Assembly: GCA_023245355.1 (NCBI GenBank)
Contig: JAHFKN010000001.1
Coordinates: 203,528-267,527, forward strand
Direction of reading: 5' to 3'
DNA: 64,000 nucleotides
From: Candidatus Gottesmanbacteria bacterium
GTDB taxonomy: Bacteria > Patescibacteriota > Microgenomatia > UBA10105 > UBA927
The notes under the pieces were generated by a model. It saw only the letters and a list, made by a program, of their open reading frames with translations, did not search any database and had not been told where the DNA came from. Below are positions 2,679 through 45,100 of the stretch, in pieces. A program made the translations under genes and the position numbers. Within the stretch, counting starts at the first letter, position 1; every line of letters starts with the position of its first letter.

Positions 2679-3203
2679 GTGGAGAATGGATTTATTAGTA
2701 TGACGAAACCACCGTTTGAAGAGGTAGTTAAAAACTATATAAAACTAGTTTATTTCTTTGCCAAGAAATCCTTGTCTGATCAGGCAGACGTAGATGACAT
2801 GGTACAAGAAACCTTTTTGAAGGCTATGAAAACATACGATAAATTTAACTTTAAGAGTGAGGGTGAGTTGAAAAGCTGGTTATTAACCATTTGTCGCCAC
2901 CTGATCATCGATCAATTCCGCTCCCGCAAGCATACCGTGACCATGGATGACGAAAAAATGGATCTGTTTGGCAATGGTGAAACAGAAGAACTGCTGGAAG
3001 CCCAAATTGATAAAGAAGATAGCGTAAAGAAAATACAGAAGGCACTCGCCTTGTTAAAACCCACGGAAAAACAAATAATGAATCTGCGTGTATGTGAAGA
3101 GATGGAATTTAAAGAGATCGCCATTGCCCTATGTTCCAAAGAGGCTGCCGTTAAAATGCGATTTTATCGTGCATTAATTAAGCTCAAAGAATCACTGATA
3201 TGA
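2679..3203 (+). CDS. ECF-family sigma-70 factor
   Basis: Region 2 (LLTICRHLIIDQFRSRKH) and region 4 helix-turn-helix (EEMEFKEIAIALCSKEAAVKMRFYRALIKL) are both present. Confidence 0.8.
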   Translation: MENGFISMTKPPFEEVVKNYIKLVYFFAKKSLSDQADVDDMVQETFLKAMKTYDKFNFKSEGELKSWLLTICRHLIIDQFRSRKHTVTMDDEKMDLFGNGETEELLEAQIDKEDSVKKIQKALALLKPTEKQIMNLRVCEEMEFKEIAIALCSKEAAVKMRFYRALIKLKESLI

Positions 3204-4108
3204 AATTCAAAAGTATTATCAAACAAGCATTCGAGAAAGAGGAGCTAAAAGAAGCCAGACACATCGATGATCTGGAGAGCCAAATATTGATGAAGGTCCG
3301 GGCGGAGAAGACAGAAGAAGCAGAACTCAAAAGGTATTTTAGGCCAATAGAATCCTTTTGGAACTTTAAAATTCCGTATGCATTTGCCGTAGCTGTGTTG
3401 GCGGTTATATTCATTACCTTCACCACATCATCTGTTTTGGCAAAGGGTTCGGTCATGGAAATGCTGATAAACCTGAGGAACGCCCTACAACAGGAGCTGT
3501 CGCAGCTATTGAACACTGACCCAACTTATAGAGATAAAGGAACCCAGAAATACCAGCAAGCCCAAAAGGAATGGTGCTTGGTCAGCGCACGACCGGCAGA
3601 GGCGCGTGAGCAGGCGGTAGAAGCCGTAAGGGACTTCTTAGACCGGCCTGATGCCAATGTGGAGTATGAGTGTGTGCGAAACCCAAGCAATAACACGAAC
3701 GAGCAACCACAGACCGAAAGTTATATCGTCGACTTTGACCGCTTTACTATTGATACTCAAACCAATCAAATTACAGAGATGGCACCGACCGGCGGGAGAT
3801 GGGGAGAGAATAAAGACGGTACACGCTGGTTTAGTCCACAGAAGGAATACGACTACACCGCACGATATAGCCAGACTGAGGCAGAACAATTAGCCAGAAC
3901 CTTTATAGCTGACCATGAGAAGGCGTTGGGAAAGATTGATCTAAGCAAACTTACCCTAGAGAGTGGAAAGAAAGACGATGGATCCGGCAAAGTAAACTAC
4001 TTTTTCATCTGGAAAACTGATGGACAGGGTGAGGACATACCCCAGTTAAATATCTCTTATACCCAGGGTGGGCAACTCATCTCCTTCTTGAACGAATTGA
4101 TACACTGA
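3200..4108 (+). CDS. Putative anti-sigma factor, single-pass membrane protein
   Basis: Its start overlaps the sigma-factor stop (ATGA). It has a cytoplasmic N-terminus, one TM helix (YAFAVAVLAVIFITFTT) and a ~200-aa ectodomain. Confidence 0.5.
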   Translation: MKFKSIIKQAFEKEELKEARHIDDLESQILMKVRAEKTEEAELKRYFRPIESFWNFKIPYAFAVAVLAVIFITFTTSSVLAKGSVMEMLINLRNALQQELSQLLNTDPTYRDKGTQKYQQAQKEWCLVSARPAEAREQAVEAVRDFLDRPDANVEYECVRNPSNNTNEQPQTESYIVDFDRFTIDTQTNQITEMAPTGGRWGENKDGTRWFSPQKEYDYTARYSQTEAEQLARTFIADHEKALGKIDLSKLTLESGKKDDGSGKVNYFFIWKTDGQGEDIPQLNISYTQGGQLISFLNELIH

Positions 4109-4341: not shown

Positions 4342-5145
4342 GTGAAAAATAAAAAAGCTATGAAGTATCCAAAAAGAATGTTAGTAATTCTTCCCCTACT
4401 TGCTGTCTCCGCTTTTGTCGGCTTCGGTCTCGCAAAGACTGATACCGTCGGCGCACAGCAAGACCCAAAACAGGCGAGGATAGAAACTCTGCAAAAGAAG
4501 TACCTAGACGCAGTCGAAAATGCTAAGACAAATGGTGAGTTCACCACGAACCAATTCGGCGAGAAAGTCTACGCTGGTAAAACAGCTGACGACCTAAAGA
4601 GTCTAGAGAAAGAGGTTGGTACTGAGATACGAGAACTGACAGCGCGTCCCGCTGCGGATAGAGCCAAGGCCGTTGAAGCCGTCAATGGATGGAATGATAA
4701 ATTCCTCTATACGATAGATAATCAGCCAAAGCAAACTCTCCAATATGCTGGTCGGTCAGGACAAGTTCAAGGCAGCAAACTCATTGGCGCAGAGCGGTAC
4801 TTTTCGGAAGACTATCAATTCACAATCGACCCGCAAACCAACAAAATCGTTGAGATGTATCTACGTCCCAAAGAAGTTGGCGAACCGGCAGCGTTCGAAG
4901 ACATGACCCCACGCTTTACCGAAGCTCAGTTAGAGCAAAAAGCCCGACAATTGATCGAGGCACAAAACTTAGGCGTGAATCTAAGCTCTTTGAAGTTCGA
5001 GAAAAACCATAAGGTAGGAACCTTTTTCTACACATGGGAAGGTGAAAAGATAGCAGACGGAGTACAACCCTCGCTTTACGTGGCATTCACGCAAGGTGGG
5101 CAACTGATCGGCTACATCAACGCAGGCTTTTTTGACAAACTATGA
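4342..5145 (+). CDS. Secreted protein, paralog of the anti-sigma ectodomain
   Basis: Signal peptide MKYPKRMLVILPLLAVSAFVGFGLA. Shares blocks with the 3200..4108 ectodomain: ARPAADRAKAVEAV vs ARPAEAREQAVEAV, FTIDPQTNKIVEM vs FTIDTQTNQITEM, FTQGGQLIGYIN vs YTQGGQLISFLN. Confidence 0.6.
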   Translation: MKNKKAMKYPKRMLVILPLLAVSAFVGFGLAKTDTVGAQQDPKQARIETLQKKYLDAVENAKTNGEFTTNQFGEKVYAGKTADDLKSLEKEVGTEIRELTARPAADRAKAVEAVNGWNDKFLYTIDNQPKQTLQYAGRSGQVQGSKLIGAERYFSEDYQFTIDPQTNKIVEMYLRPKEVGEPAAFEDMTPRFTEAQLEQKARQLIEAQNLGVNLSSLKFEKNHKVGTFFYTWEGEKIADGVQPSLYVAFTQGGQLIGYINAGFFDKL

Positions 5146-5765
5146 AAAACATATTTTCAAAAATCTTAATAGCATTGGCGGTGATAGCGGTCATGGGCTT
5201 TACCAGCGTGAGTAGTGCATTGGCCTTTGGCGATGCATCTATTTACTGCACGGGTGGTGGCTACTTTGACAAATTCGGCCCCAGCCAATACTGGTCCGAA
5301 TTTACGAGTATGGGATGGTGTAACGCCCCAGCTGGCAACAACTGGTGCGAGAATGGACAATGTGCCCAAAACTCACCCTACAATACTGTGACTCGCAGTA
5401 TGTGGAGAACCTACTCAGGGAGTCAACAGAGTAACTACGCCCGTTGGAATATGGGTAACGATGGTGGTTATTGGTACTGGTTTGCCTTTATACCAAGTAA
5501 CTATGCGACCACCTCGAGGGCGCCGTATACGATTACCTACGCGGGTGGGAGCCAATACAACTTCACTGTTAACCAGAATGCTTATTCAAACATCTGGGTA
5601 ACTCCTGGTTCACGAACTGAGAATTTCACTCAGATCATGAATACATGGTTATCTGATGCGACGAGCGAAAGCCCGTCTCAGCAAATTGGTTTTGATGAGG
5701 TTCAGAAATGTTCTGAAGCAAGTCAATACAGTGCTTATTGTCCAGGCAACCATACCAGAAGGTAA
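5142..5765 (+). CDS. Secreted Cys/Trp/Tyr-rich protein, unknown function
   Basis: Signal peptide ILIALAVIAVMGFTSVSSALA. Start is translationally coupled to the previous gene (ATGA). The mature part is rich in C, W, Y and N. Confidence 0.5.
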   Translation: MKNIFSKILIALAVIAVMGFTSVSSALAFGDASIYCTGGGYFDKFGPSQYWSEFTSMGWCNAPAGNNWCENGQCAQNSPYNTVTRSMWRTYSGSQQSNYARWNMGNDGGYWYWFAFIPSNYATTSRAPYTITYAGGSQYNFTVNQNAYSNIWVTPGSRTENFTQIMNTWLSDATSESPSQQIGFDEVQKCSEASQYSAYCPGNHTRR

Positions 5766-5848
5766 TGGAGGAAGGTCAGGGCCAGCCCGTCAAAAGGCTG
5801 GCCTGACCCAGCAGAGAAAGAATATTTAAACTAAAATAAAAATGCAAT

Positions 5849-6391
5849 ATGAGAAATAAAAAGATAAACATCAAGGAAATAATCCTGATCGCTATTGCCT
5901 GCCTGGTAGTGACAACTGGCTCATATGCGATCTTTACCCATAAAGACAGTAGATTTGAGGCGGTAGACTTGGCCAACAGAACCGAGGATAAAGGAGTAGA
6001 AGATTACTTTGTCGAGAAACTTGGTATGAACGGCGAAGAAGCCAAGAAGTTTGCCGATCAAGGGGTGTCGTTTTATATCACTGGCACTACCAACCTGGAT
6101 GCTATTATCAGCAATCTCCATTACTATGGCCTGATTAAGGACGAGAAGGCCTTCAGAGAGGCATTGGCAAAAACTAAAGACACGCTGCCCGGTAATGAGA
6201 ATGCAATTAAAATAGGTAACAACACTATTGATATTCACGCTTACTATGGCCTGAAGAAGGGGCTCACCGCCTGGCAAGTAGCAGATGTACTACTTAATCA
6301 CCCGGTTTATTTGAAGGGTGAGGAATATAATTACATGTTTATGCCCGGAGAGTACTATGGTGATGCTGCCCAGAACACACCAGCACGATGA
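5849..6391 (+). CDS. Secreted or membrane-anchored protein, unknown function
   Basis: N-terminal hydrophobic segment IILIAIACLVVTTGSYAIF. Same strand as the rest of the cassette. Confidence 0.4.
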   Translation: MRNKKINIKEIILIAIACLVVTTGSYAIFTHKDSRFEAVDLANRTEDKGVEDYFVEKLGMNGEEAKKFADQGVSFYITGTTNLDAIISNLHYYGLIKDEKAFREALAKTKDTLPGNENAIKIGNNTIDIHAYYGLKKGLTAWQVADVLLNHPVYLKGEEYNYMFMPGEYYGDAAQNTPAR

Positions 6392-6416: not shown

Positions 6417-6986
6417 ATGAAGTTAAAAACATTTTTAGTCTGTATCGCAACAATTATTGCCTTAGGTTTTATCATTAAAAACTTCACTGGCAATAACTCA
6501 AAGCAGTCACCCTCCCCTGCGCCTGCTGAGGTAACCAAAACCACACCTGATGCTGTACTGAAACCAGGTAGATCTCTCAAACCAAACGAGGAGTTTATAT
6601 CACCCTTCGGTTTATATGTAACTGTCCCCAAAGATATGACCTTCAGAAAAGAAGTAGCTGACGATGAAGGTATTATTCGTACAGTTGGGTTTTATATCGA
6701 AAACAGCAGTAAAGATAATCCCTATATGCTGTACGGATTATACGAAGCCAAAAATGTCGCCATTGATCAAACCATGGCAAGTGCCAAAAAAGATATGGTC
6801 GCCTCGACAATTAAAGACATAACAATCGGCGGGTATAAAGGTGTCGAAGGATTAATAACCGGCGACAAAACCAGATATATGGCAGTCATCGTCAAAGACG
6901 GCAAAAAGATCACCTTCTCGACTATTCCACCAACCGAAAGCAATAAAGTCATCACTGATCAGCTCCTCTCCACCTTCAGTTTTTAA
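6417..6986 (+). CDS. Secreted or membrane-anchored protein, unknown function
   Basis: N-terminal hydrophobic segment FLVCIATIIALGFII followed by a Ser/Pro-rich linker. Confidence 0.4.
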   Translation: MKLKTFLVCIATIIALGFIIKNFTGNNSKQSPSPAPAEVTKTTPDAVLKPGRSLKPNEEFISPFGLYVTVPKDMTFRKEVADDEGIIRTVGFYIENSSKDNPYMLYGLYEAKNVAIDQTMASAKKDMVASTIKDITIGGYKGVEGLITGDKTRYMAVIVKDGKKITFSTIPPTESNKVITDQLLSTFSF

Positions 6987-7050
6987 ATAACTTCTGACAG
7001 AAACGTTCTTGAAACAGACAATCTTCCCTTTGTAATATTGAAGCATAACT

Positions 7051-7124
7051 AGTTAGCCTAACGAATCAGTCGGGGCTTAGATTTATTTATTCGTAAAGAA
7101 TAGATGAACCTAAGCCCCTTTTTT
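7051..7124 (+). promoter_or_regulatory. Conserved box (GTTAG-C-CTAAC GAA N4 TCGGGGCT), long hairpin and U-run; copy 1
   Basis: Box at 7051-7076. Hairpin ggggcttag (7072-7080) pairs with ctaagcccc (7110-7118), then tttttt at 7119-7124. The same layout recurs at 14381-14461. Confidence 0.45.
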
Positions 7125-8978
7125 GTTATCTCTATGCCAGAAGTCATTGAAGAAAAAATATCAACCGAAAAAAACTACCAGCCTACCCCTGAAGAAGAAA
7201 AACTACTCATAAAATGGAAGGCCAGATTTAAACGTGCTAAAGAATTCCGTGAACCTTACCAAGCCAAGTGGTTGCGGATGTACCAACTCTACCGTGCCTA
7301 TCAACACAAGCAGAACTACGCTTATAACACCCGGCTGATGCCGCCGATCGCTTTTGAGATTGTTAAAACAGTGGTCTCTCGGTTGGCCACCGCTAAGCGC
7401 AAGACCACTATTATTCCCAGACACCAAGAGGATGTGAATTCAAAGGCATTAGGATCTTGGGGAAATCTGGTCAACTACGACTTTGACATTATTGATCTGA
7501 TCAAACGATTGCCTAACTGGATCGAATCTTCCGTTCTTTATGGAAACGGTATCGTTAAGCTTGCCTGGAAAGTCCTGAGTCGAAACGGCAAGGTAGTCTA
7601 TGACGATCCAACCATGGGACTTATTGACCTATGGGAACTGCTCCCAGCTCCAGAGACTGCAGATGACCTCCAGGATGGTTGCCCGTGGCTGATTCATCGT
7701 ATCGTTAAGCGGAAGGAAAAGATTGAAAAAGAAGAAACTGCCCGAGGTGAAAATAATATTTATAAGAACCTGGAGTTTTGTGAGCCGAAAATTGTTGAGG
7801 ATTGGAAAAAGGAACGGTATGAAATAAACGGTAAGAAAATGTCTCAGGTGGATGCCGGTACCAAGAAAGATGGTGGCGATGAGAAAATTGTCCCGGCCAA
7901 GTCAGACACCGAAAAACAACTAGAACTGTGGGAGTGTTGGGACTATGAAGAAGATAAACTGGTCGTTATTTGTAATGGCGAAATTCTTATTAGGGATGAC
8001 GAGAACCCATATCTGGGAGTAAACAACGGTCACATCTATGTTGACCTACCCGACATGCCACTCCTCTGGGAATTCTGGGCCACTGGCCATATCGAACCCG
8101 TCGAGACGACCATTCATGAAGTTGCTGACCTTAGAAACCAACGAATGGATGATGTGGTCTTAATGCTCGATCCTGTCGTTAAAATTCGTAAGGATTCCGG
8201 TATAACTAAAAACGATATCATCTTCTCTCCCGGCGCGACCTGGGAACTGAGAAAAATGGATGATGTGGTTATCGAAAGGCCACCAGAAATAAGCTTGATG
8301 GGAGTAAATGAAGATAAAATTATGCGAGATGAGATCTCCCGAACTCTGGCGCTTGGTGAATATATGCAAGGACAACCTCAGTCCCCCAATGAGCCGCTCG
8401 GGAAAGTGGCGGTGCTACTTGGTCAGAGTAACCTCCGATTAAGTATGAACGCCCAAAACATCGCGGTAGCACTAACCACAGTGGCCAATATCTTAATTCA
8501 ACTGAACCAGGAGTTTATAACGGAAGACAAATTATACCGGTTGGTAGGGAAAGAAGTCGACTTCAATGAGTTTAAAAAGGATGACAAAAAAGTGGTTGTG
8601 GACGCCATTGTTGAGGTGGAGCCGATTATACCTCCGGATAAAACCACGAGACTAAATCAAGTCCTTCTGATGTACGACAAGTTTATCGCCCAGGATAAGC
8701 CGGATCCGAACAATCCAGGGGAAGTAACACGCTGGTTGAAGCGTAAGCGCGAGCTTCAGAAGATGATTCTGGAAGAGCTGGATAAAGAGGAATATATAGA
8801 TGTGTTGCTGGGTCCGGAAGCAGAAGCTATGGCTCCACCTCAAACTAATAACGCACAAGCCCCCGTAACGCCAGCTGAGGGCCAAACTACACCAACAGAG
8901 CCAACTACAGCAGGTCCAAACAAAATTCAGCAGCTTATGGGAAAAATTCCAATTTTAGGGAAAATGCTGGGTGGTTAA
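7104..8978 (+). CDS. Portal (head-to-tail connector) protein; true start may be Met 7134
   Basis: About 620 aa, N-terminal EPYQAKWLRMYQLYR-type helix, Ala/Pro/Thr/Gln-rich C-terminus, placed between terminase and capsid. The track start contains the hairpin 3' arm and U-run. Confidence 0.5.
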   Translation: MNLSPFFVISMPEVIEEKISTEKNYQPTPEEEKLLIKWKARFKRAKEFREPYQAKWLRMYQLYRAYQHKQNYAYNTRLMPPIAFEIVKTVVSRLATAKRKTTIIPRHQEDVNSKALGSWGNLVNYDFDIIDLIKRLPNWIESSVLYGNGIVKLAWKVLSRNGKVVYDDPTMGLIDLWELLPAPETADDLQDGCPWLIHRIVKRKEKIEKEETARGENNIYKNLEFCEPKIVEDWKKERYEINGKKMSQVDAGTKKDGGDEKIVPAKSDTEKQLELWECWDYEEDKLVVICNGEILIRDDENPYLGVNNGHIYVDLPDMPLLWEFWATGHIEPVETTIHEVADLRNQRMDDVVLMLDPVVKIRKDSGITKNDIIFSPGATWELRKMDDVVIERPPEISLMGVNEDKIMRDEISRTLALGEYMQGQPQSPNEPLGKVAVLLGQSNLRLSMNAQNIAVALTTVANILIQLNQEFITEDKLYRLVGKEVDFNEFKKDDKKVVVDAIVEVEPIIPPDKTTRLNQVLLMYDKFIAQDKPDPNNPGEVTRWLKRKRELQKMILEELDKEEYIDVLLGPEAEAMAPPQTNNAQAPVTPAEGQTTPTEPTTAGPNKIQQLMGKIPILGKMLGG

Positions 8979-8983
8979 AATGA

Positions 8984-9373
8984 TCAGATGCTTTCTTGAT
9001 TGTGTGAAGCCAATTTAGAATCCTTAACGTTCCCAGTATTTAACGTACCTTTGGGCTCAATAAGAACTATGTGGACTTCTTCTTTTGCCTCGGGCTTGTG
9101 CTCGATTGGGTGGGGAATAATCACAAATTCACCCTCGTTTACTTGAACATCTTTATCTCGGAAATGAATTGTTAGTTGTCCCTTGATTACAAGAAATAAC
9201 TCATCTTCATTGTCGTGATGGTGCCAAACAAACTCTCCCTTGAGCTTTACAACTTGAACCTTATGGTTATTTAATTCACCGACGATCTTTGGATTCCAAT
9301 ACTCACTAAACAACGAGAGTTTATCTGCAATATTTACAACTTTCACGGAATAAGAGGTATTTTTCATAATCAT
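8984..9373 (-). CDS. Cupin-domain protein
   Basis: Cupin motifs: HHHDNEDELFLVIKG, then ...GEFVIIPHPIEH. Confidence 0.65.
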   Translation of the reverse strand: MIMKNTSYSVKVVNIADKLSLFSEYWNPKIVGELNNHKVQVVKLKGEFVWHHHDNEDELFLVIKGQLTIHFRDKDVQVNEGEFVIIPHPIEHKPEAKEEVHIVLIEPKGTLNTGNVKDSKLASHNQESI

Positions 9374-9439
9374 GAATATTGTAACAATTTTCTACATGAT
9401 TTGCTAGACTATATCAGTTGTAAGCAGTAACATAAGAAC

Positions 9440-10285
9440 ATGAACTACATAATTCGTCCAGCTACACGTAAGGAATTGTGTATCCCGATTGAGTGGGCGG
9501 CTAAAGAAGGTTGGAACCCAGGTCTTTTTGATGCTCGCGCTTTTTATTCTACGGATCCTCAAGGCTTTTTATTAGGATTGCTTGATGGAGAACCAATTGC
9601 TTCGATCTCGTCCGTTGCATATGATTCTAGTTTCGGTTTTCTTGGGTTTTATATTGTTAAACCCGAATATCGCGATAAAGGGTATGGCATTCAAATTTGG
9701 AATGCAGCAATAAAACATTTACCCACGCAAAACATTGGTCTAGATGGTGTACTAGCTCAACAGGAAAACTACAAAAAATCCGGTTTCAAATTAGCATATA
9801 GAAACATAAGATACGAAGGAATGGGTACTAGTGCTCATCAAGTGGATAATCCAAGTGTAATCCCCTTATCAAGCATTCAATTTGAACAGCTTTTTAAATA
9901 CGATAATCAAGTTTTTCCAACAAGCAGATCGGTATTTCTAAAAGAGTGGATCAAGCAATCGGAAAGCTTGGCAGTTGCTTACCAAAAAGATGGAAACCTA
10001 CTTGGATATGGGATGGTGAGAAAATGCCGAATCGGATATAAAGTGGGCCCTTTATTTGCTGACAATAAAGACATTGCAGATGTACTCTTTCAGAAAATGA
10101 GGTCTTTTGTTGGTCAAGATAAGCAAATATTTCTAGATACCCCAGGAGTAAATAAATCAGCAATTTTATTAGCTGAGAAGTATGGAATGAAACCAGTGTT
10201 TGAAACTGCCCGCATGTATACTAAAGACGTACCAAAAGTACAACTCAAAAAGGTTTTTGGAGTAACAACTTTTGAACTTGGATAA
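9440..10285 (+). CDS. GNAT-family N-acetyltransferase (two-lobed)
   Basis: GFYIVKPEYRDKGYGIQIWNAAIKH matches the acetyl-CoA binding motif A (R/Q-x-x-G-x-G/A). Confidence 0.6.
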   Translation: MNYIIRPATRKELCIPIEWAAKEGWNPGLFDARAFYSTDPQGFLLGLLDGEPIASISSVAYDSSFGFLGFYIVKPEYRDKGYGIQIWNAAIKHLPTQNIGLDGVLAQQENYKKSGFKLAYRNIRYEGMGTSAHQVDNPSVIPLSSIQFEQLFKYDNQVFPTSRSVFLKEWIKQSESLAVAYQKDGNLLGYGMVRKCRIGYKVGPLFADNKDIADVLFQKMRSFVGQDKQIFLDTPGVNKSAILLAEKYGMKPVFETARMYTKDVPKVQLKKVFGVTTFELG

Positions 10286-10305
10286 GCATCTTGAACACGT
10301 TAAAT

Positions 10306-10333
10306 TTGACAAAAGACGAATTTTTTGTATAAT
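10306..10333 (+). promoter_or_regulatory. Sigma-70-type promoter with extended -10
   Basis: TTGACA at 10306-10311, a 16-nt spacer, then TGTATAAT with TATAAT at 10328-10333. Confidence 0.55.
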
Positions 10334-10339
10334 ATACTC

Positions 10340-10500
10340 AATACTTAGCTGTGAAGGTCTTTGGCAAGCTGGAGCTGAGCATTCTAAAAGCGGTCTGAAC
10401 TTAAGCGATTATCGATAGTACAGACAATTAGGGTGGAACCACGGGTTAAAAGAAAACTCGTCCCTTTGTATAAGAAATTATATGAAGTGACGAGTTTTTT
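10340..10500 (+). promoter_or_regulatory. T-box riboswitch leader 1 (transcription-terminating type)
   Basis: Core AATTAGGGTGGAACCACGG at ~10426-10444. A terminator follows: cucguc...gacgag stem then UUUUUUU at 10494-10500. Stem-I-like ggcaagctggagc carries a GGC (Gly) triplet. Confidence 0.6.
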
Positions 10501-10671
10501 TGTTACTTCATATAACGACAAGTTAATAGTAGCGATGAAAGGCCTGGCAACCTGGAGCTACACCAACAGTTAAAGAGGGTAAGTTTACTGGAAATCATGA
10601 CTTACCAATTAGGGTGGAACCGCGACCATATATGGCCGTCCCTAAGCGAAAGCTTATGGAGGCATATATGG
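10501..10671 (+). promoter_or_regulatory. T-box riboswitch leader 2 (candidate translational, SD-sequestering type)
   Basis: Second core AATTAGGGTGGAACCGCGACC at 10607-10627. ccatatatggcc (10626-10637) can pair with ggcatatatgg (10661-10671), burying SD GGAGG (10658-10662) and ATG 10668. No U-run follows. Confidence 0.5.
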
Positions 10672-11921
10672 ATACACAACCATACTACAAAACAATAATT
10701 GAACAGATTGACAAGCATACTGCTTATAGGCAGGAATGCCTTAATCTGATCGCTTCAGAAAATGTCTGCAGTCCTGCTGTGGCCAAGATTCTATCTTCTG
10801 ATTTAACCAATCGTTACTCTGTTGGACGTCCTCGCGCGAGATGGTTCCCAGGATTACAGTACTACGACAAAGTTGAGGAAATTGCGGAAAAGCTTTCACA
10901 AAAACTATTCCATGTCCAGTATGCCAATGTTCAAGCCCCTACGGGAATGGTGGCTAATATGGCCGCTTATTTAGCGGTGCTTAAACCCAACGACCTGGTG
11001 TTAGCTCTGCGCGTTAAACACGGAGGACACTATAGTCATGTTGCCGAGAATATATTCAAAAGCTTCAACATCCGCGTTGAGGATCTTCCCTTTGATGAAC
11101 AGTCATATTCTGTAGACATTGAGAGAGCCATTGATCTCATTAGGGTTAAGAAACCACAAATGATTATTCTTGGAACTTCGGAGTTTTTATTCCCAGCACC
11201 CATTAGAGAATTAAGGCAGGTGTGCAACAAAACAAACACTAAAATTCTTTATGATGCCTCACATGTCTCAGGACTCGTGGCTGGACAAACTTTCCAAAAT
11301 CCAATGGCAGAAGGAGCAGATATTCTCACAATGAGCACCAATAAGACATTGGCTGCCCCAAGTCATGGACTTGTGGCCTGCAACGACACAGTCAAGTATC
11401 AGGCTGACTTTGAACATGCAATTACCCCTCTCCTAACGTCAAATCACCATGCGCACCATGTCGCTGCTTTGGCCATGACCTTGGCAGAGTTTGATGTTTT
11501 CGGACACGAATACGCTGCTCAAATTATTATGAATGCAAAAACTTTGGCACGAGCCCTTTATAACCAAGGGGTAAAGGTTTTATGCCCTGAAAAGGATTTT
11601 ACCGAGAGTCACACTGTTTTGATTGATACTGTGACCTCATCAAAAGAAGCAGTGCAGAAGTTGGCTGAGGCAAACATTATGACAAATTCGTTTCAACTTC
11701 CCTGGAATGAAGATGGGTTTGAAAGTGGAATCCGAATAGGAACAAACGAAATAACCAGACTTGGAATGAAAGAGTCAGAGATGAATGTTGTTGCCGATTT
11801 AATAGCAGCTGTTTTATTGAAAAAACAATCGATCGCTGAGATTAAACGGAAAGCACAAAATCTTAGATTGTCTTATCAGACAGTTAATTATTGTTTTAAT
11901 CCAGCTCAATTAAGTAGCTGA
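10668..11921 (+). CDS. glyA: Serine hydroxymethyltransferase-like PLP enzyme
   Basis: LIASENVCSPAV matches SHMT LIASENF; HGGHYSHV matches GGHLTHG; STNKTL sits at the PLP-lysine position. Start set at Met 10668 behind GGAGG. Confidence 0.7.
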   Translation: MDTQPYYKTIIEQIDKHTAYRQECLNLIASENVCSPAVAKILSSDLTNRYSVGRPRARWFPGLQYYDKVEEIAEKLSQKLFHVQYANVQAPTGMVANMAAYLAVLKPNDLVLALRVKHGGHYSHVAENIFKSFNIRVEDLPFDEQSYSVDIERAIDLIRVKKPQMIILGTSEFLFPAPIRELRQVCNKTNTKILYDASHVSGLVAGQTFQNPMAEGADILTMSTNKTLAAPSHGLVACNDTVKYQADFEHAITPLLTSNHHAHHVAALAMTLAEFDVFGHEYAAQIIMNAKTLARALYNQGVKVLCPEKDFTESHTVLIDTVTSSKEAVQKLAEANIMTNSFQLPWNEDGFESGIRIGTNEITRLGMKESEMNVVADLIAAVLLKKQSIAEIKRKAQNLRLSYQTVNYCFNPAQLSS

Positions 11922-11935
11922 AGGAGGTAAATTAT

Positions 11936-12478
11936 ATGGCAAAACCAGAACAGTCAGAATCAATGCAAGAATTCGAACAACGCTGTATTGAGACAGTGAA
12001 GCGAATGCGTGCTCAGGCTCACAAGGTGTTAGATAGGGCTGGAACAGTTCATAAAGCTCAACCGCTCAAGAAGTGGGAAAAGATTGTTTATCCCCTTCTG
12101 GGAATGAAGCCCGAAGGTTATATGGAGTTTGATTCGGCCAACGATCCACGATTAGCGATCGTCACAAGGGCGGCTGCTGGAGGACTGGTAACCCCAAGAG
12201 TTAGAGTTCTGGCACCATCTGAAAGAAACGAAATGTCAGCTATGGAAGTTCGACTGTCCGGCAAACAGCCAGAGACTGGAAGAAATGTCGACATCATGAG
12301 TGTTGACCTCCCAGAGGGATCAAATAGTGCAGTACAAACAAAAGTAATTTTGTGGACCGCACCCTTACCAGGGAGGATTCCATTTTATGAAGTCATGGAT
12401 TCAAACTTTGCCGAAGTAGTAGACTTAACAATAAGAACTCTGGAACACATTAATAAATGTTTATCTGAAAGGAAATAA
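11936..12478 (+). CDS. Hypothetical protein between glyA and glyQS
   Basis: ORF with a GAAGGAGG ribosome-binding site, sitting in the same operon. No motif recognised. Confidence 0.45.
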   Translation: MAKPEQSESMQEFEQRCIETVKRMRAQAHKVLDRAGTVHKAQPLKKWEKIVYPLLGMKPEGYMEFDSANDPRLAIVTRAAAGGLVTPRVRVLAPSERNEMSAMEVRLSGKQPETGRNVDIMSVDLPEGSNSAVQTKVILWTAPLPGRIPFYEVMDSNFAEVVDLTIRTLEHINKCLSERK

Positions 12479-12480
12479 AT

Positions 12481-13860
12481 ATGGACACAACAATGCAAAA
12501 AATCGTCAGTTTATGTAAAAGAAAAGGGTTTGTTTATCCAAACTCTGAAATTTACGGAGGAATTCAGGGGTTCTATGATTACGGACCACTAGGAGCCGAA
12601 CTACAAAATAACATCAAGCGGGTTTGGTGGAAATGGATGACCCAACTCCATGATGATGTCTATCCAATTAACGGAGCAATCATCACCCATCCGAAGGTTT
12701 GGGAAGCATCAGGACACGTTCAGAACTTCACCGATCCGTTAGTCGACTGCAAAAAATGTCATAAACGTTTCCGAGCCGATCACTTGGTTGAGGAATTCCT
12801 CACAGAGGATGCTGGAACTGCTAGTCAAAATCGCTTGGATCAGATAGCAGCAGAACTTAAATCAAGACACATTGTTTGCCCTGAGTGTGGAGGAGAGTTT
12901 ACCGAGGTCCGCAAATTCAATCTTATGGTTGAAACTTCCCTTGGGGTTGTTGAAGGCGAAAAGATGACGGCTTATCTCAAGGGGGAGGCATGCCAAACGA
13001 TCTACCTGGATTACCAGAATGTGCTTAATTCGACTAATGCCAAAATTCCTTTTGGGATATGTCAAATCGGGAAGGCTTTCAGAAATGAAATCACCCCAGG
13101 ACATTTTTTATTTCGTCAGCGTGAGTTTGAACAGTGGGATCTCCAATGGTTTACCAATCCCAAAGAAATGGATAAATGGTATGAGTACTGGAAAGCAGAA
13201 AGAATGATGTGGTATCAAAGCCTAGTGAATCATAAAGATCGTCTGCGCTTTAGACAACACGATCAAAACGAACTTGCTCATTACGCGAAAAAGGCATTCG
13301 ATATCGAGTATGAGACTCCATTTGGATGGAAAGAATGGGAAGGAATCCACTGGCGTGGAGACTGGGATTTGTCCCGTCATGGGCAATACAGTGGGAATGA
13401 TTTTACCTATACTGATCAAAAAACAGGTGATAAATTTATTCCTTGGATTGTCGAAACATCAGGAGGAGTTGATCGCACTTTCCTTTTCCTGCTCATTGAT
13501 GCTTACGATGAAGAGGTCGTAGATGGGAAAACGAGAGTGGTTCTACATTTACGACCAGACCTAGCTCCGTACAAAGTAGCGGTCTTCCCGTTGGTATCCA
13601 ACAAAGAAGATATTGTCGAAAAGGCAAAGTCAATCTACAGAGCATTAAAACCTAGCATTGCAACCATTTGGGACGATATCGGGAATGTTGGAAAGAGATA
13701 TCGAAGACAAGATGAAGTTGGTACTCCGTGGTGTGTCACGGTTGATTACCAAACACTTCAGGACGATACGATAACAGTTCGAGATCGAGACACTATGAAA
13801 CAAGAAAGAGTGAAGGTATTAGATCTGGAATACTTTTTTGCCGAGAAGTTGAAAATTTAA
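12481..13860 (+). CDS. glyQS: Glycine--tRNA ligase (dimeric class II GlyRS)
   Basis: Class II motif 2 QIGKAFRNEITPGHFLFRQREFEQWDLQWF. N-terminal GFVYPNSEIYGG...YDYGPLG is typical of alpha2 GlyRS. Confidence 0.85.
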   Translation: MDTTMQKIVSLCKRKGFVYPNSEIYGGIQGFYDYGPLGAELQNNIKRVWWKWMTQLHDDVYPINGAIITHPKVWEASGHVQNFTDPLVDCKKCHKRFRADHLVEEFLTEDAGTASQNRLDQIAAELKSRHIVCPECGGEFTEVRKFNLMVETSLGVVEGEKMTAYLKGEACQTIYLDYQNVLNSTNAKIPFGICQIGKAFRNEITPGHFLFRQREFEQWDLQWFTNPKEMDKWYEYWKAERMMWYQSLVNHKDRLRFRQHDQNELAHYAKKAFDIEYETPFGWKEWEGIHWRGDWDLSRHGQYSGNDFTYTDQKTGDKFIPWIVETSGGVDRTFLFLLIDAYDEEVVDGKTRVVLHLRPDLAPYKVAVFPLVSNKEDIVEKAKSIYRALKPSIATIWDDIGNVGKRYRRQDEVGTPWCVTVDYQTLQDDTITVRDRDTMKQERVKVLDLEYFFAEKLKI

Positions 13861-13867
13861 AACAGGA

Positions 13868-14254
13868 TTACTCATCGTACTGGCTTAGAAGTGCTTCCAA
13901 GATGGGGTGGATTTGTCTGTCGACCATCAACCTCCCCTTTTCGGTATCCTTAATGACACCCGTTTCTTTTGCTATCTGCAGAAGTCGTGAGATTTCCTCA
14001 TCTCTCAGTGGTTTACCTTCGTCATCAACTCCAACAACCGCTTTATACGCAGCTTCATCAAATGTTGCTGGTTCAGGTGCAAATGGGGCTAGATAGAGAA
14101 TGCCTGTTAGAACTCTCTCTCTGCCTGCATTTCCAAATAGTTGTCTATCTTTTTCTGTGAGCAATGAATCTGCAATCAATTCAAATTGAGCCCTAGTAGT
14201 ATCAGGTTTTAAAAGTTGTCCAAGTTTTGGTAATGGTTGTTCGGCTTTTTCCAT
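13868..14254 (-). CDS. Hypothetical protein
   Basis: 128-aa ORF on the minus strand, reading toward the gly genes. No motif recognised. Confidence 0.35.
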   Translation of the reverse strand: MEKAEQPLPKLGQLLKPDTTRAQFELIADSLLTEKDRQLFGNAGRERVLTGILYLAPFAPEPATFDEAAYKAVVGVDDEGKPLRDEEISRLLQIAKETGVIKDTEKGRLMVDRQIHPILEALLSQYDE

Positions 14255-14380
14255 ATAAATAATCCTTAAAAGATATAAAGATTATAACATTATATGGCCT
14301 GAAGTTCAAAAAATAACACAAAAAGACATAAACATTATTGAAGTCTCCATTACCCCTTGATTACTATTAAACCATTAAGA

Positions 14381-14461
14381 AGTTAGCCTAACGAAACTAT
14401 CGGGGCTGTGGCTTCTGAATATACGCAAGATGCGTGTGTTTAGAAGTTACAGCCTTTTTTT
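14381..14461 (+). promoter_or_regulatory. Conserved box, long hairpin and U-run; copy 2
   Basis: agttagcctaacgaaactatcggggct at 14381-14407. Hairpin ggctgtggcttct (14404-14416) pairs with agaagttacagcc (14442-14454), then ttttttt at 14455-14461. Confidence 0.45.
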
Positions 14462-14472
14462 AAAGGAAAAAT

Positions 14473-14775
14473 ATGAATAACGATACAACTAATCCTCAAA
14501 ACGACAATATGGTTAACCAAGATACCCAGTCTGTTGGCTTTAAAAAAGGTACCGAACCAAATAAAGACGAAGCCTGGAAAAAAGTAGAGGCGGTATTTAA
14601 CGCTGCAAAGAACGCCTTCATTGATAAAAATTCACCGTTTGCTGACGTCCTCGATAGTTTAATTGCTACCTTGATGGATATTCGGGCAGCTGAAAAACAA
14701 GGGTTAAGCGGTATGGGAACTGATAACCCACAAATGGATATCCCTGCCCCAACTGATAATGGGCAAAATTTATAA
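14473..14775 (+). CDS. Hypothetical small protein
   Basis: ORF directly downstream of the conserved box with an AGGAAA-like ribosome-binding site. Confidence 0.4.
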   Translation: MNNDTTNPQNDNMVNQDTQSVGFKKGTEPNKDEAWKKVEAVFNAAKNAFIDKNSPFADVLDSLIATLMDIRAAEKQGLSGMGTDNPQMDIPAPTDNGQNL

Positions 14776-14781
14776 ACAAAT

Positions 14782-15036
14782 ATGGCACAAACTGACGAAC
14801 AAAAATTAGAACGCGGCCGAGATATCTGGGAAATGACCCAGACAAAAGGCTGGCAGATTTTAAGTGACTCAATTGCTGAAGAAATCCAGTTGGAAACAGC
14901 TGAGCTTTTAGATTGCCCTGTTAAGGACGACCTAGAACACAAACAATTAATAAAAGCTTACAAAAAAGTTTTACGCATGGTTGAAGGAGCGATCGCCGAT
15001 CGAGACGAAGCTGCTCAAAACCTGCGGGGAGTATAA
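14782..15036 (+). CDS. Hypothetical small protein
   Basis: ORF tightly packed with its neighbours on the same strand. Confidence 0.4.
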   Translation: MAQTDEQKLERGRDIWEMTQTKGWQILSDSIAEEIQLETAELLDCPVKDDLEHKQLIKAYKKVLRMVEGAIADRDEAAQNLRGV

Positions 15037-15041
15037 AAAAT

Positions 15042-15860
15042 ATGGAAGACGACAAACAAAAAGAACAAGACGAATTAAAATCTTTACTCAATAACCCCGA
15101 CGAGGGTGATGAGGGAGATAAAGGTAAAGACAACTCCGACAAGCAAGATGATCCACCGGCTGATGATAACCAAGACGATACTGGAAACGATAACGGCCAA
15201 GACAATGGTGCTGGTGATGATGATAAAAATAAGGACGAAAAAGATAAAGGAAAAGACGATCGTTGGAATGGTAAGAGCCGGGAAGATGTCATCAAGGAAG
15301 TTCAATCATTGGAAACGAGAATTGCTAGTCTCGAGGGCAAGAAAAAAGAAGATAAAGATAATAAGCCAAATCCGGATGAGAAAAAGGAAACGGTAAATCT
15401 CCCCTCTGCAGAAGAACTCCAAAAAATGACTCCGAGTGATTTTGCTAAGTGGGTCCTAGCCCGAATTGATGAAGGCGTCAAAACCACTCTATCCAGTCAA
15501 GAAAAAGTAAGAAGTGCAGTCCGTCAAGAAATTGCCGAAGCCAAAAAGGATCACCCACTGGACGATCCTGACTACCGAAAAATGGTCTTAACCATTATCG
15601 ATGCTGCCAGTGCCAAAGGAACAACTGTGTCCTTAAAAGAAGCCTGTGAGCAGGTCGATGCCTTTATCGGCAAACACAAAGGGAAATCTGAAGATATATC
15701 AGATGATGAGCGCAATCGCCTTAAAAAAGCGAAGGCTCAGGTTGAGAGTGGAGCGGGCGCTCCGACTCAACCCGATAGCTCGGATGCCGAAACACAACGC
15801 ATCCAGAAAGCTCTCGGTGGAAGCGGGTCAAAAAGCCCCTTGGGAGGGTTAGGAATCTAA
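15042..15860 (+). CDS. Putative scaffolding protein (very acidic, low complexity)
   Basis: D/E/K-rich N-terminus (DEGDEGDKGKDNSDKQDDPPADDNQDD...), a helical middle, and position immediately before the capsid gene. Confidence 0.45.
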   Translation: MEDDKQKEQDELKSLLNNPDEGDEGDKGKDNSDKQDDPPADDNQDDTGNDNGQDNGAGDDDKNKDEKDKGKDDRWNGKSREDVIKEVQSLETRIASLEGKKKEDKDNKPNPDEKKETVNLPSAEELQKMTPSDFAKWVLARIDEGVKTTLSSQEKVRSAVRQEIAEAKKDHPLDDPDYRKMVLTIIDAASAKGTTVSLKEACEQVDAFIGKHKGKSEDISDDERNRLKKAKAQVESGAGAPTQPDSSDAETQRIQKALGGSGSKSPLGGLGI

Positions 15861-15902
15861 CCTCCTGTTATTAGTTAAAAAGAAGGGAGGTGAAAAAATA
15901 TT

Positions 15903-17069
15903 ATGCCATCAGCAACAGGAATAAAAGGAACAGGAAATTTAGGAGTCTTACGTAAGTACGACGTCGCCGACGTGGTCTCGCTACTCGACGTTAATCGTTA
16001 TCCTCTTTTGGCCATCTTGACCAATGCAGGAAAAGATCCAGCAAGTGGTGAAGGTAAAGCCTTGAAAAAGAGTGAAGCGGTAGACCCGGAGTTTAAGTGG
16101 TATGAAGATGACTTTGGTCGTCGCCAATTAACCGGTTCAGCAACTGTCGATCCCGATGGAGGGAACTTGACTGTCACCGGTCAATCACAGTACTTACAAG
16201 TTGGAGATGTAATTTTGGCTGCTGCCCAGAAATGGGTCTTCCAAGTTACTGCTATTGTCGATGCCAACACCGTCACGGTTGGTCCCGAATTAGGAGGGGC
16301 AACCGGCGCAGCTGCTTCGGCAGTTGGAGATGTCTGGCTTATCGGAAACGCTAATGAAGAGGGTGCAGGATTAAGAGATATAAAGTCAACGATCATCCAA
16401 GAAATATCGAACTACTGCCAAATCTTCAGAACGCCAGTCGGTATTACTGAAACATCCAAAAACACTAAGGGATTAACCAAGGAAAACGACTTTGATTTTC
16501 AAAGGCGAAAGAAAGGTATCGAGCACTATGTCGATATCGAAAGATCGTTCTTATTTGGCAAGAAAGGCATCATCACTACAGGGACTCATCCAAAACGATT
16601 CACTGCTGGTATCTTGTCTAGGATTGCAACCTACGCTACAGCGAGTGTTGATACAGAATCAGAATTTGATGCTTGGTTGGAGAGCTTATTTGCACACGGA
16701 AATACAGAAAAATATTTGCTTGCATCTGCGGCCGTGGTTTCCATGGTCAACGGTTGGGCAAAGGGAAAGCTACAGATCGTAAGTCCAACAAAGGCTTATG
16801 GACTGCGAATCGTAACCTACGATTCTCCACACGGAACGCTACACATGATCAAACATCCATTATTAACTGGAACGACATACGGAAATTATGCTGTCGGTTT
16901 GGACATGGAATGTTTGACCTACCGCTACTTGAGCAATCGAGATACCAAGCTTTTGACTAACCGTCAGGCCAATGGTGAAGATAGTCAAGTCGATGAATAT
17001 CTGACCGAATGCGGTCTGCAAATGGAGCAAGAGTCACGCCATGCCATTATGAGCATCGGTGCGCTCTAA
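15903..17069 (+). CDS. Major capsid protein (putative)
   Basis: 388 aa, follows the scaffold, strong GGGAGGTGA ribosome-binding site, a terminator-like hairpin pair downstream, and Gly/Thr/Ala-rich beta-type composition. Confidence 0.5.
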   Translation: MPSATGIKGTGNLGVLRKYDVADVVSLLDVNRYPLLAILTNAGKDPASGEGKALKKSEAVDPEFKWYEDDFGRRQLTGSATVDPDGGNLTVTGQSQYLQVGDVILAAAQKWVFQVTAIVDANTVTVGPELGGATGAAASAVGDVWLIGNANEEGAGLRDIKSTIIQEISNYCQIFRTPVGITETSKNTKGLTKENDFDFQRRKKGIEHYVDIERSFLFGKKGIITTGTHPKRFTAGILSRIATYATASVDTESEFDAWLESLFAHGNTEKYLLASAAVVSMVNGWAKGKLQIVSPTKAYGLRIVTYDSPHGTLHMIKHPLLTGTTYGNYAVGLDMECLTYRYLSNRDTKLLTNRQANGEDSQVDEYLTECGLQMEQESRHAIMSIGAL

Positions 17070-31570: not shown

Positions 31571-31596
31571 AAAAACAGACCCCATTCGGGGTCTTT
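31571..31596 (+). terminator. Intrinsic terminator at the composition boundary
   Basis: cagaccccattcggggtc hairpin followed by ttttttt. Confidence 0.5.
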
Positions 31597-32599: not shown

Positions 32600-33598
32600 T
32601 TAATTGAGGAACGTGCGGATATTCTCAAGATGCTCTTCGTACGTTTTTGCACAGTGAATCTCCCGGTCAGAAGAATGCAGGTAAAAAATACAATCGGTTT
32701 CCTCGGGGTGTAACACCGCTTTTATGGCAGCCAGCCCCGGATTACTGATAGGCCCCGGAGGCAAACCTTTGTTCCGGTACGTGTTGTACGGCGACTCCAG
32801 ATACTTATCGGCAGGAACGACTCTGCCCCACCACCCGTCATCGCTGTTTCCTTTGATGTACTGAAGCGTCGCGTCGATCTCGAGCCGCATGTCTTTATCC
32901 AGCCGGTTCCAGATGATGCCGGCAATCAGCGCTTTATCACTGTCGCCCCCGGATTCGCGCTCGATAAGCGACGCGATTTTTATGGCGGTCGTCCATTTGA
33001 TATTTTTGGCGGTGAAAGCATCGATGTACGGAGCGAGTACTTCATTAAAATGATCGGTAAACCGTTTTGCTACCGCACGAACCGGTTCATCGGACGGCAA
33101 CAGATACGTATCGGGGAAATACACTCCCTCGTGGTACTCTTGGGAATCGTTGTTATACGCATTCCATTCCTGTTCCTGAACAGGCGTCCATCCGAGCATT
33201 GTTCCCAAGTGTTCGCCGATCTGCTCTTTCCGAAGTCCTTCACGCACACTCACCCAGACAAATTGGGGCGGACTGGTCAGTTTTTTTACCAGTGCCCATG
33301 CACTCATCGAACGGTTGAGACGATACCCGCCCGGTGCTACTGTTTTTCCTGAACCGAAAACCGACATAAACCACGAAAATGCATGTTGATTCCGGATAAG
33401 ATGTTTTGAAAACAGATCCTGCGGCGCGTCATAGCCGGAAGTTCCCTGCGGAACGACAACGATCACTTCAGACGCATCGTTTGAGACCGGCCCCAACACC
33501 TGCCACATCAGGGTACTTATACCCGTAAGCGACACTACAAATACCAGAAAAAATACTATGAAATGTTTCATTCTGTGAGCGCTGCTCTGCTCACCCAT
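32600..33598 (-). CDS. mltG: Endolytic murein transglycosylase MltG (YceG-like)
   Basis: N-terminal TM, then YNTYRNKGLPPGPISNPG, the MltG signature. Confidence 0.8.
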   Translation of the reverse strand: MGEQSSAHRMKHFIVFFLVFVVSLTGISTLMWQVLGPVSNDASEVIVVVPQGTSGYDAPQDLFSKHLIRNQHAFSWFMSVFGSGKTVAPGGYRLNRSMSAWALVKKLTSPPQFVWVSVREGLRKEQIGEHLGTMLGWTPVQEQEWNAYNNDSQEYHEGVYFPDTYLLPSDEPVRAVAKRFTDHFNEVLAPYIDAFTAKNIKWTTAIKIASLIERESGGDSDKALIAGIIWNRLDKDMRLEIDATLQYIKGNSDDGWWGRVVPADKYLESPYNTYRNKGLPPGPISNPGLAAIKAVLHPEETDCIFYLHSSDREIHCAKTYEEHLENIRTFLN

Positions 33599-44220: not shown

Positions 44221-44227
44221 ATTTAGT

Positions 44228-45073: not shown

Positions 45074-45100
45074 GTTGGTAGTGTAGCATATTTAATTTTT

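Follow-up and report, generated by a model that had tools for sequence, protein, structure and literature searches.

Two copies of a promoter-proximal RNA element stand directly before the structural genes of a prophage in a 64,000-nt stretch of a Candidatus Gottesmanbacteria contig (JAHFKN010000001.1, positions 203,528 to 267,527; hereafter the window, to which all unprefixed coordinates refer). Each copy comprises a short conserved box, a long hairpin and a run of T (U in the RNA) behind a predicted promoter; copy 1 precedes the portal gene and copy 2 the scaffold and capsid genes. The repeat, the RNA-level hairpin with its U-run, the position of the promoter, the placement before the portal and capsid blocks and the conservation throughout the phage family are directly supported. 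We propose that the element is a conditional terminator that gates two late operons, insulates them from cargo transcription and is overridden in a box-dependent manner, a reading to which we assign a probability of about one half.

The pattern AGTTAGCCTAACGAA-N4-TCGGGGCT matched exactly at 7051–7077 and 14381–14407 on the + strand of the window. A first-pass annotation had placed the box once before the portal gene and once before the scaffold and capsid block; exact pattern search confirmed both sites and corrected the length from 26 to 27 nt. No third match was found in the 64 kb even with three mismatches allowed (0 expected by chance), and 100 dinucleotide-preserving shuffles gave 0 matches. 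Relatives of the phage were gathered by their portal and capsid proteins, independently of the box (44 viral-contig loci and 21 genome loci), and alignments were built of 20 portal-type (A1) and 14 capsid-type (A2) sequences. Across these 34 protein-anchored copies the conserved core was GCCT(A/G)ACGAA-N4-TCGGGGCT, invariant save at the A/G position. Read as RNA, this is GCCURACGAA-N4-UCGGGGCU, lying within the first ~27 nt of the leader, and in copy 1 its last 6 nt form the base of the 5' arm of the hairpin. Among element-bearing phages the box fell into the classes CCTAACGAA, CCTGACGAA, a class-B form (CCTGACGGC plus a small hairpin) and the box-less type of locus L039. In every compact genome the box variant and the N4 spacer were identical between the two copies; CCTGACGAATTTA, for instance, occurred in both copies of L067, L081 and L110. 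A box variant shared within a genome fits a common trans-acting reader, and gene conversion between the copies would give the same pattern.

The long hairpin and T-run reported behind each box were borne out by folding. The + strand RNA reached −30.3 kcal/mol in copy 1 and −40.1 kcal/mol in copy 2, compared with −12.2 and −17.4 kcal/mol for shuffled sequences (z-scores of −6.6 and −8.0), and 0 of 200 shuffles were as stable. The − strand folded far more weakly (−24.1 and −21.5 kcal/mol). It follows that G.U pairs contribute to the fold and that the structure belongs to the + strand RNA. In A1 the helix had 19 consensus pairs with 99.2% of cells paired and double compensatory changes at three pairs (slid controls, 37%–68%), and in A2 it had 25 consensus pairs with 98.9% of cells paired and three pairs changed on both sides; slid controls over both alignments were 31%–68% paired, and many G.U to G-C or A-U switches were seen in each. 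The G.U pairs, the strand asymmetry, the pairing across relatives and the compensatory changes thus indicate that the hairpin is selected at the RNA level.

Portal-type and capsid-type stems have a common GGGGCU/AGCCCC base and no sequence relation above it. In distant relatives (class B) the stems are longer still (30–40 bp), and the box region folds into a GCC-UGAC-GGC mini-hairpin, behind which stands the small hairpin, 6–8 bp long and variable in sequence. A covariance model trained on the capsid type alone nevertheless recovered all three groups, with 92–105 bits for capsid-type, 44–54 bits for portal-type and 20–33 bits for class-B copies (E down to 2e-6). Its matches all lay on the + strand before the portal gene, and exactly two were found in the full prophage; an additional match in L045 and L046 was discarded as an ordinary short terminator. 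A sliding scan of the whole prophage likewise returned the two copies as the only intergenic + strand hairpins of −27 kcal/mol or lower with a T-run. Another hairpin, near-perfect with ~14 pairs (GGTCAGGGCCAGCC...GGCTGGCCTGACC), occupies 5775–5810 between the genes at 5142–5765 and 5849–6391; both of its strands fold stably (about −33 to −36 kcal/mol in 80-nt windows), and neither flank has a T-run. When Rfam 15 was searched, only two tRNAs in the window reached the gathering score and no family matched the element, and permissive scans of both loci gave only miRNA-like hairpin noise far below threshold.

The G+C-rich GGGGCU/AGCCCC stem base followed by 6–7 T on the transcribed strand is the arrangement of an intrinsic terminator. 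After a first, looser hairpin filter had passed GC-rich chance matches, genuine copies were defined by six or more T within 10 nt past the stem, which left 85 unique copies; at least 7 T in this interval were found in 83 of them, and the U-run was kept even where the stem sequence had been wholly replaced. The hairpin and U-run are therefore predicted to form an intrinsic terminator, which ends 9–17 nt before the portal AUG. The stem spans about two helical turns or more, compared with 7 bp in the host-type terminator at 31577–31594, and a near-perfect duplex of 20–40 bp could conceivably be cut by RNase III, separating messages or removing the leader. The box UAACGAA can pair with UUUGUUA/G just past the U-run in portal-type and some capsid-type copies, and in these subtypes the helix would be extended only in read-through RNA. 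This pairing was rejected as a general feature, being absent from window copy 2 and from the TTTTTGCTTGG subtype, and a pure processing site would have no need of a conserved U-run abutting the stem. We consider RNase III cleavage an improbable explanation of the element in its own right, although it would be compatible with a conditional terminator as an added layer.

Upstream of the box, TAnnnT ending 17–24 nt 5' of it was present in 79 of the 85 unique copies. Best-match promoter scoring failed to separate real from shuffled AT-rich upstream sequence, and a positional test was used instead; here, TTG-N16–18-TAnnnT was confined to that offset within the 95 nt upstream of the box in the 85 copies. 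Capsid-type promoters read TTGAGA, TTGCGA or TTGACA, N17–18 and then TAGACT or TACAAT, and distant relatives carry at the same site a consensus TTGACA-N17-TAAAAT or TGcTATAAT. The AAAGTTTATTGAAG context is common to the element promoters and the early promoter region of the prophage. A ACAGAAAC..TT motif is conserved just 5' of the −35 element, and the −35 hexamers are weak in many portal-type copies. In the window, transcription is predicted to start at ~7045 and ~14374. Given that the box lies downstream of the conserved −10 element, it should be transcribed (about +12 to +33).

This position bears directly on an earlier interpretation of the box as DNA. The inverted repeat GTTAG-C-CTAAC is found in both window copies and is confined to the window's own lineage and closest relatives. 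It had been taken for the 5+1+5 operator of a dimeric regulator, with an AbrB/MazE-like protein and an extracytoplasmic function (ECF)-type sigma factor, encoded at 2679–3203, as candidate regulators; in a variant of this idea, the box would itself be an ECF sigma promoter. However, the left half GTTAG (7052–7056 in copy 1) is variable in most relatives (AATCC, AAACC, AATTC, AATTT, GTAAA or AAGTC), whereas the right half and TCGGGGCT are invariant, and the operator reading therefore fails. The G.U pairs and strand asymmetry point to selection on RNA. Most relatives lack the sigma gene and the AbrB-like gene within the sequence examined: among relatives whose upstream region was readable, the ECF sigma gene occurred in only four loci, and no homologue of the AbrB/MazE-like protein was seen in any relative. 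Furthermore, no ECF-type AAC (−35)/CGT (−10) motif with 16–17 nt spacing keeps register between the copy types, and no box-like sequence was found in the DNA that separates the repressor from the early operon. These comparative data largely refute the operator/ECF model, which now appears very improbable. What remains of the original proposal, a terminator, antiterminator or late-promoter element under protein control, is the terminator-type hairpin and U-run tied to a late promoter, without the protein operator.

The start of the portal gene was also revised. The open reading frame (ORF) track begins at 7104, inside the 3' arm of the hairpin, a start already suspected of being over-extended. 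The sequence MPEVKEEK/MPKPEVKE encoded from the ATG at 7134 is conserved in relatives, and the codon at 7104 is ACG or GAA in most of them, which indicates that 7134 is the true start. The distance from box to AUG is 76–89 nt in portal-type copies, and the AUG follows the U-run by 9–17 nt with no Shine-Dalgarno sequence in any portal-type copy (7125–7136 in the window and equivalent positions). Genes neighbouring the portal gene have strong AGGAGGTGA Shine-Dalgarno sites. Because there is no space for a promoter between the U-run and the start codon, expression of the portal and the capsid-to-tail genes would require read-through of the terminator. Behind the capsid-type copy, the homologue of the gene at 14473–14775 comes first in the window lineage and second in most relatives; the assumption that it is always first proved wrong, as an ORF of ~137 aa precedes it in most relatives. 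The coordinates of the features are given in Table 1.

Table 1. Features of the two element copies and of the genes and promoter associated with them (window coordinates).
Feature	Position	Strand	Remarks
Predicted sigma-70-type promoter, copy 1: −35 TTGAAA (7009–7014), 18-nt spacer, −10 TAATAT (7033–7038)	7009..7038	+	9/12 match
Leader box, copy 1: GCCTAACGAA-TCAG-TCGGGGCT	7056..7077	+	~+12 to +33 of predicted RNA
Hairpin, copy 1 (portal type): GGGGCUUAG...CUAAGCCCC, 20 pairs (9+11 bp, 1x1 internal loop)	7072..7118	+	Folding and alignment A1
U-run, copy 1: TTTTTT, then GTT	7119..7124	+	Ends 9 nt before portal AUG
Portal gene, corrected start ATG 7134	7134..8978	+	PHROG portal and head-tail adaptor matches
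Consensus promoter TTGACA-N16-TATAAT ahead of SHMT-like gene in cassette 2	10306..10333	+	12/12 match
Predicted sigma-70-type promoter, copy 2: −35 TTGAAG (14338–14343), 18-nt spacer, −10 TACTAT (14362–14367)	14338..14367	+	
Leader box, copy 2: GCCTAACGAA-ACTA-TCGGGGCT	14386..14407	+	Aligned with relatives
Hairpin, copy 2 (capsid type): 25 contiguous pairs, many G.U	14403..14455	+	Folding and alignment A2
U-run, copy 2: TTTTTTT	14455..14461	+	11 nt before AUG at 14473
Head-morphogenesis block behind copy 2: 100-aa, 84-aa, 272-aa scaffold-like, major capsid protein (15903–17069)	14473..17069	+	

The genome relatives were almost all metagenome-assembled genomes of Patescibacteria, or candidate phyla radiation (CPR) bacteria (Woesebacteria, Daviesbacteria, Shapirobacteria, Roizmanbacteria and Amesbacteria, with a few under other NCBI labels), and included one complete 0.9-Mb chromosome. 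The element was found directly 5' of the portal gene in every relative with readable upstream sequence and a portal identity of at least ~57%, and in the closer relatives the head block was preceded by another copy. Scanning metagenomes with the conserved core returned at least 120 matching stretches. Among the matches listed, ~80 were genuine and ~40 were chance matches inside high-GC coding sequence without a hairpin, and the first downstream ORF was a portal homologue in 32 of 33 portal-type copies. The element has more than 80 metagenomic copies, and the left half of the inverted repeat varies across the related copies. The exact 15-mer AGTTAGCCTAACGAA had 12 matches in viral contigs, all of which were dismissed as chance matches with no TCGGGG or hairpin, and the longer core had no match in the same collection. 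Megablast of 11 kb against GenBank phages gave no match, the best capsid-protein match among these phages had 29% identity, and no cultured relative of these phages was found. Two further arrangements were seen at the element in relatives. Between the element and the portal AUG, L031 and L039 have a second long hairpin (~30 bp, CCCTTTGAAGGTTTAGTTTCTTCC...) with a T-rich run, giving tandem hairpins. In L045 (1760–2010; also in L046), an ordinary terminator is separated from the element promoter by ~250 nt that contain several hairpins and a separate TTGATATAAT-like promoter; this stretch may represent a further non-coding RNA or a short ORF.

In the proposed mechanism, a host-type sigma-70-like promoter would start RNA at ~7045 or ~14374. 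In the lysogen, transcripts from the local promoter and from the upstream cargo would stop at the hairpin, leaving an RNA of ~80 nt; during lytic growth, termination would be overridden and the portal and capsid-to-tail genes expressed. The invariant box, which overlaps the base of the terminator's 5' arm, would be the recognition element for this override, either through a protein of the phage or the host that binds the RNA as it is made and keeps the bottom of the stem open or through a factor loaded onto the polymerase at the box. From these sequence features we infer active promoters and a hairpin that terminates transcription under regulation, with the box mediating that regulation. The same terminators would also serve as insulators: that of copy 2 would stop the cargo transcripts that start at 10306 and point toward it, and the element would likewise stop transcripts of the TerS-TerL-cargo operon. 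Insulation of the structural genes from the inserted cassettes had been suggested at the outset, and the element does stand between cargo and structural genes. However, in the compact relatives L020, L067, L070 and L073, which also have both copies, no cassette separates the portal gene from the capsid block; thus, cassette insulation is not the primary reason for the element.

Several observations weigh against a conditional terminator. The promoters, transcript ends and termination are predictions. Some capsid-type U-runs are broken (CCCATTTTAG, CCCCAATTTATT), and the stem is much longer than termination needs, so that another or an extra role is possible. An alternative helix (GCCU..CGA/UCG.GGGC) would tie up the opening bases of the terminator arm, but it is weak (−4.9 to −5.3 kcal/mol), and because its positions are all invariant, covariation cannot speak on pairing of the box. 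The box is also not convincing as a −10-like pause element: in TAACGA at about +15, T1 and A2 are present and position 6 is A, not T, and distant relatives have TGACGG. Among the visible early and middle genes, none could be linked through Pfam, PHROG or PDB to Q, N, NusG-like or CAT-domain proteins, and no conserved gene lies directly 5' of the element, in the Q-like position. Moreover, three relatives keep the promoter without the long hairpin. In L143 (6600–6720, − strand), the promoter and the box start GTTAGCCT run straight into CTTTTTATCGAG..ATG, a clean deletion between two AGCCT repeats that removes the 3' part of the box together with the entire hairpin. L112 and L192 have the promoter and the box, and L192 has only a short CGGGGCUGCCCCG hairpin in place of the long one. 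Conversely, L039 has the promoter and the hairpin but no box.

In a rival explanation, the hairpin would be a constitutive, partly leaky attenuator, insulator or mRNA-end stabiliser, with timing set at the promoter and the box kept for stability of the 5' untranslated region or for promoter escape. The hairpin would then end the upstream units, protect their 3' ends and set a low, steady read-through into the portal and capsid genes. The copy 1 hairpin does lie at the end of an upstream + strand operon (TerS to the gene at 6417–6986), which it would terminate, and the portal is a low-copy protein whose gene has no Shine-Dalgarno sequence; the conserved motif 5' of the −35 element and the weak −35 hexamers of many portal-type copies could mean that these promoters depend on an activator. 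The occurrence of hairpin-less variants and the failure to find an antiterminator also speak for this explanation. However, the consensus promoters directly before the portal gene in distant relatives need some restraint in the lysogen, a G-C-based stem of 20–40 bp with 6–8 U is expected to terminate efficiently, and constitutive attenuation leaves unexplained why an invariant 22-nt leader stands on two otherwise unrelated hairpins. We regard a purely constitutive role as unlikely.

Alternatively, the two copies might be small-RNA genes whose ~80-nt terminated transcripts act in trans in the lysogen, with the box as a single-stranded seed. A promoter, a single-stranded 5' region of ~27 nt and a terminator hairpin are the typical build of such genes, the same seed stands on two different hairpins, and StxS, made from PR'-tR', is a precedent (PMC7547250). 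In the ~38-kb prophage, however, no complement of the box was found beyond 1-mismatch chance matches, which argues against a phage target. More than 80 copies stand strictly in front of portal or head genes, which favours a function in cis, and portal expression would still need read-through. Small RNAs as the principal function seem improbable, although they could exist alongside a conditional terminator. More tentatively, a conditional terminator of this kind could be part of a new antitermination system, specific to Patescibacteria phages and marked by the box, in which polymerase started at these promoters would be made terminator-resistant, either by a new factor that binds RNA or loads onto the polymerase or by the leader RNA; the ~80-nt leaders might double as small RNAs in the lysogen.

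The window contains most of the prophage (GC ~0.43) and adjoining host DNA (GC ~0.52), whose genes next to the prophage had no match in the relative loci examined. An exact-protein look-up identified the missing left part in L198, whose coordinates equal those of the window plus 9187. The prophage measures ~38 kb, of which ~10 kb is cargo, and its right end lies at ~31.6 kb of the window. A tRNA-Gly(CCC) gene (L198:2691–2764; window −6496 to −6423) is overlapped by the 3' end of a serine integrase/recombinase gene (L198:2655–4307), and this overlap probably marks attL. The integrase gene is followed in L198 by genes for a DUF3800 protein, an ImmA-like peptidase and an XRE repressor, and a divergent rightward operon encodes a cro-like ORF, a 239-aa replication-initiator-like protein, 50-aa and 85-aa proteins and a ParB-methylase. 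The cro-like helix-turn-helix ORF (MTKTKSKKTIFINKDKRV..., L198:6540–6800), divergent from the XRE repressor, is absent from the recorded gene calls. Besides the weak replication-initiator-like gene, no replication module was visible in the prophage. The order in the window is TerS and TerL, a cargo cassette with the ECF-type sigma gene, copy 1 and the portal gene, cassette 2, copy 2 and the head genes, and then the tail genes, which end at the bidirectional terminator 31577–31594. Pfam, PHROG and PDB searches with the neighbouring and early proteins identified only the replication-initiator-like protein, the ParB-methylase, the ImmA/XRE pair, the ECF sigma factor, and cupin, GNAT and serine hydroxymethyltransferase (SHMT)-like proteins.

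The cargo itself is diverse. In the first cassette, the ECF-type sigma gene (Sigma70_r2 and r4_2 domains) is followed by a gene for a 302-aa protein (2679–4108 for both), which is conserved across a wider range of relatives than the sigma gene beside it; the two could be a sigma/anti-sigma cargo pair. Cassette 2 (8984–14254) encodes a cupin (− strand), a GNAT acetyltransferase, an SHMT/aminotransferase-like protein, two unknown proteins and a 128-aa protein (− strand), and no homologues of it were found in any relative examined. The 332-aa protein at 32600–33598 was rejected as an integrase and is a host YceG/MltG-like transglycosylase. Homologues of it (42%–49% identity) occur as phage cargo between TerL and the portal gene in L070 (6326–7465) and also in L020, L081 and L026, and may have been captured from the host to serve in lysis or at the cell wall. 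In the host region of GC 0.52, a low-GC island (0.365) at 44001–46000 lies around a 677-aa gene (45101–47134).

Phages of Microgenomates were not reported until 2019, and then on the basis of sequence alone (PMC6509639). Our literature search found no published account of gene timing and no description of a regulatory RNA in CPR phages. The element is an abundant and sharply defined RNA leader at the decision point for structural-gene expression in one CPR phage family, and the covariance model can annotate this family, with the portal start corrected. If it is a regulated terminator, the 22-nt box, the terminator and the two copies per genome would offer a testable handle for finding the antitermination factor, the lysogenic or lytic state of phages in uncultured hosts could be read from metatranscriptomes, and a natural promoter-terminator part would be available for organisms without genetic tools. 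Should box-dependent antitermination prove true, CPR phages would gain their first described cis-regulatory RNA and, with it, their first described mechanism of lysis-lysogeny timing. The hairpin-less variants L143, L112 and L192 are ready-made natural controls for function.

Among known systems, the closest likeness is to the PR'-qut-tR' module of lambdoid phages (lambda 6S RNA, StxS). There, too, a sigma-70 promoter and an intrinsic terminator within ~80–200 nt stand directly before the late genes in a temperate phage; by default, transcription yields a short terminated RNA, and the late genes need read-through. The PR' promoter is always on, and its transcripts stop just downstream until antitermination occurs (PMC7547250). 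A host-type promoter with only a terminator before the prophage structural genes follows the same logic. A predicted promoter and a close terminator shape before the late genes, as in the lambda type, were found; a Pfam or PHROG match to the Q family was absent among the visible genes, although not all genes of all relatives were readable. The element differs from the lambdoid module in having no Q-family gene beside the promoter or among the visible genes and no conserved −10-like pause element that could be found. It is present in two copies per genome, its conserved RNA part overlaps the stem and the stem is 20–40 bp long; the two also have no sequence similarity, and the hosts here are Patescibacteria.

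Other systems share narrower features. Like the nut sites of lambda and P22 (boxA and boxB, read by the N protein), the element is a promoter-proximal leader with a conserved linear box, to which distant relatives add a small hairpin; unlike nut, close relatives have no small hairpin, the terminator is part of the element and no arginine-rich N-like protein was identified. The box GCCURACGAA is unlike the boxA consensus, a comparison with no alignment behind it. The put RNAs of HK022, which act in factor-independent antitermination, are likewise two related structured cis RNAs per genome, each just past a promoter, but put consists of two non-terminating stem-loops without a U-run, whereas the element is a single long hairpin with one. 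As in the ribonucleic antiterminator (RAT) switches of BglG, SacY and LicT, the element has an invariant sequence that lies just 5' of the terminator's 5' arm, overlaps it and can form a small alternative helix; a protein holding this helix would block the bottom of the terminator stem. However, neither a RAT consensus nor a CAT/PRD-domain protein was seen, and the helix is weak and without covariation support. The RNase III hairpins of lambda sib/tI and the T7 R sites also combine a near-perfect RNA duplex of about two turns with a terminator, but the element lies 5' of the regulated genes, directly past the promoter. Small phage proteins such as gp39 of Thermus phage P23-45 (PMC3351154) and p7 of Xp10, which are site-independent antiterminators, could supply the override. 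Such factors need no cis element, which leaves the invariant box unexplained, and no homologue was detected. Sharing single features with nut, put, RAT and RNase III hairpins and fitting none of these systems, the element appears to work most like the lambdoid late module.

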